Positions 4,635 through 37,340 of a DNA stretch of 64,000 bases are shown here, piece by piece. The DNA comes from Tannerellaceae bacterium (lineage in GTDB: Bacteria; Bacteroidota; Bacteroidia; Bacteroidales; CAMTPD01). The notes beneath the pieces are model-generated. The model was given only the letters and a program-made list of their open reading frames with translations. It was not told the origin of the DNA and searched no databases. Within the stretch, counting starts at the first letter, position 1, and every line of letters begins with the position of its first letter. The DNA is taken from positions 80,331 to 144,330 of the forward strand of contig JBOFPV010000052.1 of NCBI GenBank assembly GCA_051660585.1, in the 5' to 3' direction. The position numbers and the translations under genes were made by a program.

Positions 4635-6164
<1,530 letters not shown>

Positions 6165-33879: not shown

Positions 33880-33915
33880 AAAGGCCGTCTCTTAGAGATG
33901 GCCTTTTCTTTTTTA
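33880..33915 (+). terminator. Rho-independent terminator ending the ribosomal super-operon
   Basis: 10-bp stem AAGGCCGTCT / AGATGGCCTT (one G.U pair), loop CTTAG, then TTCTTTTTT. Confidence 0.85.
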
Positions 33916-34144
33916 CTTTGGCCTTCATCACGATCATCGATCAAGATATCTGTAACCGATCCCATTATATTTCGTACAGTTCATTCGCGCATCTTTCGAT
34001 GTCTACACTTCCTGTCTATCCCTTGTGTTCATTGCATAAATGTTTGAGCTAGCTTTCGCACCTCCGATGTCGATATACCGTTTCTCATTTTAGTTTTATT
34101 CGATGTTATCTTTTCTATAGGTCCTTTCAATGGTGCGATAGTAA

Positions 34145-36881: not shown

Positions 36882-36998
36882 ATGAATGCCAATTTAATCA
36901 GCGCTATTGAAGTTACGGTAATCTCGATGCTTGGGATCTTCGTGTTTATGTTACTATTCTACTGTATCATCAAACTACTAGACAAGTATTGCAAGTAA
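36882..36998 (+). CDS. Possible 38-aa single-TM micro-protein (OadG-like?)
   Basis: Hand translation gives MNANLISAIEVTVISMLGIFVFMLLFYCIIKLLDKYCK. It lies 32 nt after oadB. The hydrophobic core resembles the N-terminal helix of OadG-family subunits, but it is very short and has no clear RBS. Confidence 0.3.
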   Translation: MNANLISAIEVTVISMLGIFVFMLLFYCIIKLLDKYCK

Positions 36999-37037
36999 CC
37001 GCAAAGCAACGAATAAAAATAAACCTTACTTACTTCA

Positions 37038-37210
37038 AATCGTCAGGTCGCCATCTGACGATTCGAAACAAACGAAGACTGAATCGTCAGGTGCCGACCT
37101 GACGATTCTCTTTTCATTATAACAGAATCGTTTGATCGGCATCAAACGATTTAAACCTAGTGAAGACTGAATTGTTCGATGCCCATCAAACGATTCAGTC
37201 TTCACTATAT
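37038..37210. repeat. Tandem 2 x 88-nt repeat, each unit carrying two hairpins
   Basis: Hairpins at 37038-37063, 37081-37108, 37126-37151 and 37160-37205. The units align with conserved AATCGT/ACGATT frames and a GAAGACTGAAT linker. See findings. Confidence 0.8.
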
Positions 37211-37299
37211 TTGAAAATAAAGGACGCTATAAGCGAAAAGAGATAGTACAAAAACGAGATTGTGATGCTATGAAGATTATTCCGGCGTTGGGTTGATGG

Positions 37300-37340
37300 C
37301 AAAAGAAAAGGCCGGCAGGAAAAATCCTGTCGGCCTTGTA
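37300..37340 (-). terminator. Rho-independent terminator of rplS
   Basis: Minus-strand hairpin AAGGCCGACAGGA-TTTT-TCCTGCCGGCCTT followed by TTCTTTT. Confidence 0.8.

Follow-up and report, generated by a model that had tools for sequence, protein, structure and literature searches.

A probable REP/BIME-like mosaic repeat at the oadB-rplS locus of a Tannerellaceae bacterium and in related Bacteroidales genomes

BOX of Streptococcus pneumoniae is reportedly a modular intergenic repeat of the form boxA-boxB(n)-boxC. Its terminal modules are mutually inverted, its internal subunits of about 45 nt vary in number, and its predicted secondary structure is strong; it is not known to have a transposase. 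The REP/BIME elements of E. coli and the REPINs of Pseudomonas are short extragenic palindromes found near gene 3' ends (Bertels & Rainey 2011, PMC3116915; Di Nocera 2013, PMC3733652). REP/BIME palindromes fall into at least two subtypes, set apart by compensatory changes in the stem; a BIME is a mosaic of subtypes with short conserved linkers, the smallest REPIN is a pair able to form a long mutual hairpin, and both REPs and REPINs are inherited vertically at orthologous sites. A REP is an imperfect palindrome of about 20-40 nt, and its cognate RAYT, a single-copy Y1 HUH transposase, is flanked by the repeats. By definition the foot of a REP hairpin has a conserved tetranucleotide, GT[AG]G or CGTC, that stays unpaired (PMC3733652). 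For Bacteroidota, mention goes no further than "atypical secondary structures" beside RAYTs of subclass 2.6 (Quentin et al. 2018, PMC6006769). The BrickBuilt MITE of Porphyromonas gingivalis, present in about 19 intergenic copies per genome, carries a tandem minisatellite of 23-nt units without spacers between leader and tail modules, with small inverted-repeat ends, and has promoter activity (PMC4596501).

Much of this architecture recurs in a family of repeats represented by an array of 26-nt palindromes at positions 37020-37213 of the window, the 64-kb stretch of Tannerellaceae bacterium DNA analysed here. The array is very probably a copy of a mosaic repeat that is dispersed, non-coding and confined to its lineage, and that is of the REP/BIME/REPIN or BOX kind. 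This kind is well known, whilst the family itself is previously undescribed. The likeness to BIMEs is one of architecture only, the sequences being unrelated to the E. coli Y/Z REPs. We label the family REP/BIME-like, and not a member of the RAYT-REP family, because the unpaired GTAG/CGTC foot is missing: there is no GTAG, and CGTC occurs only inside the paired stem of one palindrome subtype (type A), with CGTT in the other (type B). Compared with REPs, its palindromes are almost perfectly two-fold symmetric and held in strict 44-nt register, its linkers lie in either orientation, and its copy number appears modest, with at least 19 arrays and at least 66 units in the best-sampled genome against the hundreds typical of REPs. 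A six-frame search for [ND]HUH...Y..NP ORFs found no RAYT in the roughly 0.5 Mb made up by all fetched loci and the window, which covers a small percentage of each genome. With BOX the family shares the modular plan of inverted end modules and a variable number of subunits of about 45 nt; it has no sequence relationship to BOX, whose subunits are not known to be individually perfect palindromes or to form A/B subtype blocks. BrickBuilt comes from the same order, Bacteroidales, and is likewise intergenic, but its unit measures 23 nt rather than 44 nt and no sequence similarity was seen.

The window array holds four 26-nt palindromes with the frame AATCGT-N14-ACGATT, beginning at 37038, 37082, 37126 and 37170 in an exact 44-nt register. 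Allowing up to one mismatch, this frame occurs four times in the 64-kb window, every time inside the array; shuffled sequences contained it 0.19 times on average, and none of 100 shuffles contained it four times. The first-pass annotation had described four hairpins (H1 to H4) on a tandem 88-nt unit. The hairpins are present at the coordinates it gave, and 37038-37121 does match 37126-37209 as an 84-nt direct repeat, 71% identical and spaced by 88 nt, but the basic repeat measures 44 nt, 26 nt of palindrome and 18 nt of linker, so that 88 nt corresponds to a pair of units.

Reading along the + strand, the array opens with an outer left linker-like module (37020-37037, TAAACCTTACTTACTTCA), which corresponds in degenerate form to the 18-nt L module found at the ends of most arrays. 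Unit 1 (37038-37063, AATCGTCAGGTCGCCATCTGACGATT; H1) is a type A palindrome scoring 42 bits on both strands with the covariance model described below, and is followed by linker 1 (37064-37081, CGAAACAAACGAAGACTG), which comparison of units and linkers identifies as an L module in forward orientation. Unit 2 (37082-37107, AATCGTCAGGTGCCGACCTGACGATT), the core of H2, is again type A, and linker 2 (37108-37125, CTCTTTTCATTATAACAG) is an L module in reverse, T-rich on the + strand. Unit 3 (37126-37151, AATCGTTTGATCGGCATCAAACGATT; H3) is a type B palindrome, assigned like unit 2 from the frame, the unit table and the covariance model. Linker 3 (37152-37169, TAAACCTAGTGAAGACTG), a forward L module, supplies the left arm of the H4 outer stem, and unit 4 (37170-37195, AATTGTTCGATGCCCATCAAACGATT), type B with an AATTGT frame variant, forms the inner part of H4. 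The outer right L module (37196-37213, CAGTCTTCACTATATTTG) is reversed; linker 3 and the outer left module both run the opposite way, and this inversion accounts for both the H4 outer stem and the terminal-inverted-repeat-like end of the array. H4 is a 20-bp hairpin in all, and its outer stem has the 13 bp first annotated. Units 1 and 2 have the interior CAGGT/ACCTG (type A), and units 3 and 4 have TTGAT or TCGAT / ATCAA (type B), so that the window has the complete arrangement L A L A L B L B L.

When folded, the + strand of 37020-37225 reached -88.2 kcal/mol (z = -13.2) and the - strand -89.5 kcal/mol (z = -10.5), far more stable in both cases than shuffled sequence. The minimum-energy fold joins H1 and H2, which are mutually complementary at 93%, into a single long hairpin rather than two local ones. 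Self-complementarity of the units makes each palindrome of the window complementary to its neighbour as well. We built a covariance model from 57 distinct units; applied to the window with filters off, it returned only these four units, with equal scores on both strands.

We took a single genome for each prokaryotic species and searched it for pairs of frames separated by 14-24 nt; all array and unit counts given here are minima. At least 50 stretches matched, and of the 50 listed, 49 had the exact 44-nt spacing and lay in four related Bacteroidales MAGs: Tannerellaceae bacterium WFFMC_MAG_403 (at least 19 arrays, at least 66 units), Porphyromonadaceae bacterium UBA12018 (at least 16 and at least 39), uncultured Porphyromonadaceae SRR7610121_bin.6 (at least 13 and at least 35) and Bacteroides sp. 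UBA7333 (at least one array). WFFMC_MAG_403 represents the species of the window, and the same assembly holds the window locus at 98-99% identity. A REP/MITE-like element belonging to a dispersed family had been among the possibilities first raised, and the search bears this out, the unit recurring in at least 49 arrays across the four related genomes. A match in an Acidobacteriaceae MAG (L011, 4813-4880) was rejected as an unrelated, chance fit to the pattern: it is a non-palindromic 42-nt tandem repeat, GAATCGTGAGTAGTGCGG(C/T)GAACGATTCATTCGGC...

The 146 units collected fall into two recurrent subtypes joined by conserved linkers. Type A reads AATCGTCAGGT....ACCTGACGATT and type B AATCGTTTGAT....ATCAAACGATT, whilst the linker L has the consensus TAAACATAGTGAAGAATG, or its reverse complement, in two main variants. 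The commonest 26-mer is AATCGTCAGGTCGGCACCTGACGATT (21 copies), followed by its reverse complement (14 copies), which is unit 2 of the window; the exact 26-mer of unit 1 has 9 copies. Units have two-fold symmetry, with invariant positions A1 A2 T3 T6 G9 / C22 A24 T25 T26, nearly invariant G5, T11, C18 and A21, and a variable centre. The two-unit pattern had no match in the phage collection, and blastn against plasmids gave no match either. Across the array, Rfam returned no family at gathering thresholds; a permissive search of the spacer gave only sub-threshold hairpin look-alikes, the best being STnc400 at 36 bits against a threshold of 80. A CRISPR array was ruled out, as the 18-nt "spacers" are themselves conserved between unrelated loci. 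String searches of a literature library with the unit sequences retrieved primer coincidences and no relevant context.

Arrays contain 2-4 units and measure 106-194 nt. Type A units form a block beside a block of type B units (AA, AAB, AABB and their reverses) and never alternate, while inner linkers occur in either orientation and in no fixed order. The ends are usually inverted L modules, resembling terminal inverted repeats, and in 90 array ends conservation extends about 18 nt outward from the outermost palindrome, with a weak continuation to about 26 nt. A profile search (nhmmer) of the fetched loci and the window, about 0.5 Mb, found no solitary units, and the sole apparent single units are those at which a contig ends within the array. 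Unusual units were seen at three loci. At L025 (4447-4478) and L037 (3522-3553), both from WFFMC_MAG_403, the arrays end in the same variant unit, AATTGTCAGRTGSCGAC-GAGGGCACTGAAAAA, and continue into unrelated flanks. An insertion sequence within a unit was considered for these two loci and ruled out, because the shared part stops after 15 nt and looks like a variant terminal unit; this variant may represent a third, terminal unit type. The unit at L049 (6427-6452), AATCGTCCGATGGCGATCAAACGATT, is a hybrid whose loop resembles type A and whose arms resemble type B, and the step after it is 45 nt instead of 44 nt; at the orthologous site other species have two A units only.

Arrays are intergenic throughout (49/49 among those listed) and lie mostly at gene 3' ends, in many cases starting 15-100 nt past a stop codon, a distribution that is classic for REP-like repeats. 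In the window, eno, oadB and a 38-aa ORF lie on the + strand, converging on rplS on the - strand, which has its own hairpin terminator. This GC-rich bidirectional intrinsic terminator, which the first-pass annotation had recognised as separate, maps to 37308-37337, about 95 nt beyond the array and outside the repeat; it is an ordinary one, is kept in all strain variants, and is common to rplS (-) and potentially to the eno-oadB operon (+). Between the end of the micro-ORF after oadB (36882-36998, +) and unit 1 there are 39 nt. This ORF matches nothing in Pfam and is absent from the NCBI annotation of the same locus (L001); it is kept as a 44-aa ORF after oadB in outgroups with 80% OadB identity, with the shared core IF.FMLLFY.II.LL.K, and its product is probably a real small membrane subunit. 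This conservation places the array in the 3' untranslated region of a real operon. No OadB with between 81% and 99% identity was present among 5.8 billion proteins, which marks the lineage as isolated. The nearest relatives, at 80%, are not syntenic: their gene order is rtcB-oadB-44-aa ORF followed by a convergent TPM gene. Outgroup oadB operons end with one ordinary bidirectional terminator and zero repeat units. On sequence comparison the array therefore reads as a lineage-specific addition to the 3' untranslated region of the oadB operon. The remark that there is more structure here than termination needs was a fair one, given the single ordinary terminator of the outgroups.

Elsewhere in the window, the sole match at Rfam gathering thresholds was the S4-Bacteroidia ribosomal-protein leader RF03139 (31692-31726, +; 44.9 bits), which assigns the window to Bacteroidia, and a tRNA/tmRNA search of the window returned none. 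A scan of the locus for sigma-70-type promoters gave five matches against 4.3 expected, which is background.

For 41 arrays the genes on either side could both be scored: 16 have convergent neighbours, 20 tandem and 5 divergent, figures that count orthologous sites more than once; arrays between convergent or tandem genes (36 of 41) are enriched and divergent ones depleted. Unit 2 with linker 2 resembles an intrinsic terminator on both strands and unit 1 does so on the - strand, the reverse L module is T-rich directly after the palindrome, and many arrays begin within the distance past a stop codon given above. It could be that the family exists for termination, as host-selected stacked bidirectional intrinsic terminators or insulators, a reading compatible with a dispersed repeat but stronger; we regard it as possible, though on balance unlikely. 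Against it stand the canonical bidirectional terminator already present at 37308-37337, several other arrays that by eye sit beside ordinary GC-rich terminators, outgroups that manage with one plain terminator, the five arrays between divergent genes, and a linker orientation, and hence T-tract position, that looks unordered. At the window locus, the array would be transcribed as the 3' end of the eno-oadB-micro-ORF message, and with unit 2 followed by CTCTTTTCATT scoring as terminator-like and H4 reaching 20 bp, some termination or 3'-end protection is plausible; we conjecture that unit 2 with its T-rich linker, and H4, would add both. Such a contribution would presumably be accessory and not needed, given the canonical terminator.

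About 13 orthologous sites were comparable between species and all were occupied, in a sampling biased toward occupied sites; on this basis the arrays look vertically inherited and old. Overlaps between the fetched loci revealed no empty site, and the route through OadB homologues failed for the lack of sequences in the 81-99% range and of synteny in the 80% relatives. We infer mobility of the family from its dispersal, no empty site or insertion polymorphism having been seen. Between orthologous sites, palindromes are 87-98% identical, linkers 50-93%, and 150-nt flanks mostly 83-95%, with two right flanks at 0.51 and 0.75. Spans differ by 43-45 nt, that is by one unit (for example 174 vs 218, 145 vs 189 and 130 vs 175), and sites also differ by flipped loops. 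Changed positions amount to about 5% in stems and 16% in loops, and there are 7 compensatory pair changes (3 or 4 of them independent) against 18 one-sided changes.

Strains with an identical OadB protein were compared at the window locus itself. Among these strains, unit 2 changes from CAGG..CCTG to CAGA..TCTG, and the H4 outer stem from GAAGAC/GTCTTC to GACGAC/GTCGTC. In L003, L004 and L009 the whole of unit 3 is the exact reverse complement (loop CGGC to GCCG), which is one inversion and not four substitutions. Strain L002 carries, at about 4880-4950 (the site of window position 37213), a 66-nt insertion past unit 4 that consists of a duplicated ATTCAGTCTTCACTATATTGGGAAATAAAG and a half-unit remnant, and which shows that the array is changing at the strain level.

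Pairing is kept across the family as a whole. For 11 potential pairs in the 57 distinct units, 94.9% of cells are standard pairs, and covariation is detected at 7:20, 8:19 and 10:17, with none of 500 shuffles reaching the observed score. The original argument that pairing had been preserved by double substitutions therefore holds at the family level and in the orthologous double changes, two of which are in the window array. It does not hold between the two halves of the window array, where compensatory divergence after a local duplication had been proposed: CAGGT/ACCTG versus TTGAT/ATCAA is the difference between subtypes A and B, each of them conserved in sequence genome-wide. Nor is a one-strand RNA structure under selection indicated by these data. 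In arrays where one strand is expected to be transcribed into the array, sense-strand G.U pairs number 24 against 20 A.C, and since G.U is not commoner than A.C the pairing is symmetric between strands, in line with the equal scores of the covariance model. Strand symmetry fits a DNA-level palindrome or a both-strand function better than a one-strand RNA.

The inverted ends raise the possibility of a MITE, an IS deletion derivative moved in trans by a DDE transposase that would bind the terminal inverted L modules. Terminal inverted repeats are present, since the L modules at the two ends are inverted and their conservation extends over about 18-26 nt; the elements are intergenic, dispersed and 106-194 nt long, and BrickBuilt of P. 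gingivalis, from the same order, likewise has an internal minisatellite (PMC4596501). Inspection of 45 arrays, however, revealed no consistent target-site duplication at their ends, the fetched flanks (about 0.5 Mb) contained no parental IS or transposase, and comparable orthologous sites were all occupied, with no insertion polymorphism between species. Transposition also leaves the variation of internal unit number in 44-nt steps unexplained, and we consider this origin improbable.

About equally improbable is that the array consists of sites at which a dimeric DNA-binding protein binds or recombines the DNA. Either the 9-bp inverted arms and variable 8-bp centre would resemble the core site of a tyrosine recombinase, or nucleoid-protein sites would be set about four helical turns apart. 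The perfect two-fold symmetry with invariant outer positions and a variable centre, the rigid 44-bp phasing, the equivalence of both strands, and the loops and linkers found in both orientations, as if inverted, all suit such a protein. Yet its binding would not need positions 7-11 to stay complementary to 16-20, and these covary; no cognate gene is linked to arrays in the fetched flanks; and, from what is established for recombinases, segments of 18 bp are too short for ordinary synapsis.

Least probable by far is a locus-specific structured RNA, a small RNA or a 3'-UTR regulatory element of oadB or rplS that arose by local 88-nt duplication under RNA-level selection, for which the very stable folding and the compensatory differences between the two halves and between strains would speak, but which is largely refuted by dispersal, the same units and linkers occurring at 48 or more other unrelated intergenic sites, and which is further contradicted by the family-wide nature of the A/B split, by G.U pairs that are not favoured on the transcribed strand (24 vs 20) with both strands scoring equally, by the lack of any Rfam family at gathering score over the array, and by sigma-70-type matches at background.

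Returning to the mosaic repeat of the REP/BIME kind, its behaviour could be accounted for by its architecture. Each palindrome forms an inverted repeat by itself and a direct repeat with its neighbours, and recombination, or template switching during replication, between units would lengthen or shorten an array in 44-nt steps and invert the sequence between units or inside them. The capacity to form hairpins might be kept by templated correction within the palindrome, by selection, or by a mix of both. Selection could come from a structure-specific enzyme by which the element was once spread, or from some advantage for the host. Original spread would have been catalysed in trans, with an HUH/RAYT-type tyrosine transposase as the textbook candidate. 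In the fetched flanks, a small percentage of each genome, no gene was recurrently linked to arrays: all-against-all blastp of flank ORFs within each genome returned unrelated paralogues and ORFs that span arrays. A bolder version, which we think rather unlikely, is that Bacteroidota have an undescribed counterpart of the REPIN-RAYT partnership, still active, for which the arrays serve as substrate. Its enzyme would be a dimeric recombinase or a RAYT of subclass 2.6. The hairpin or duplex that it recognises would be 26 nt long, perfectly symmetric and without a foot, and the enzyme would insert, delete and flip modules of 44 nt while keeping strictly to the register; if true, this would be a phased, modular replicator distinct from proteobacterial REPs.

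The REP/BIME-like family adds a clean, strictly phased Bacteroidota example to the REP/BIME/BOX class and provides a concrete sequence family in which to seek a cognate enzyme. It neither opens a long-standing question nor upsets expectations, but it has practical consequences. Because compensatory changes are present, the repeat could pass for a conserved RNA motif. Close strains differ in how many units an array has and in which way its loops point, so that arrays could serve as typing markers. The family also breaks short-read assemblies, contigs ending inside arrays at L007, L008, L010, L038, L044 and L052. Finally, arrays spawn spurious ORFs that are likely sources of "hypothetical proteins". 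ORFs of 56-214 aa running through arrays (window 37035-37205, - strand; L012 1066-1467; L035 997-1641; L023 6417-6989) cross-match in blastp, and the 56-aa ORF that runs through the window array is itself likely spurious.

A separate observation concerns the rplQ-eno spacer upstream (window 33915-34105; L001 2087-2372; also L003, L048 and L055), which contains unrelated sequence of a different length in each strain or species. The replacement starts just after the L17 terminator, with flanks that are otherwise 95-99% identical, and in L001 the spacer has an internal direct repeat of about 60 nt in which CCTTACACTGCATCCTTATCAACAA occurs twice.
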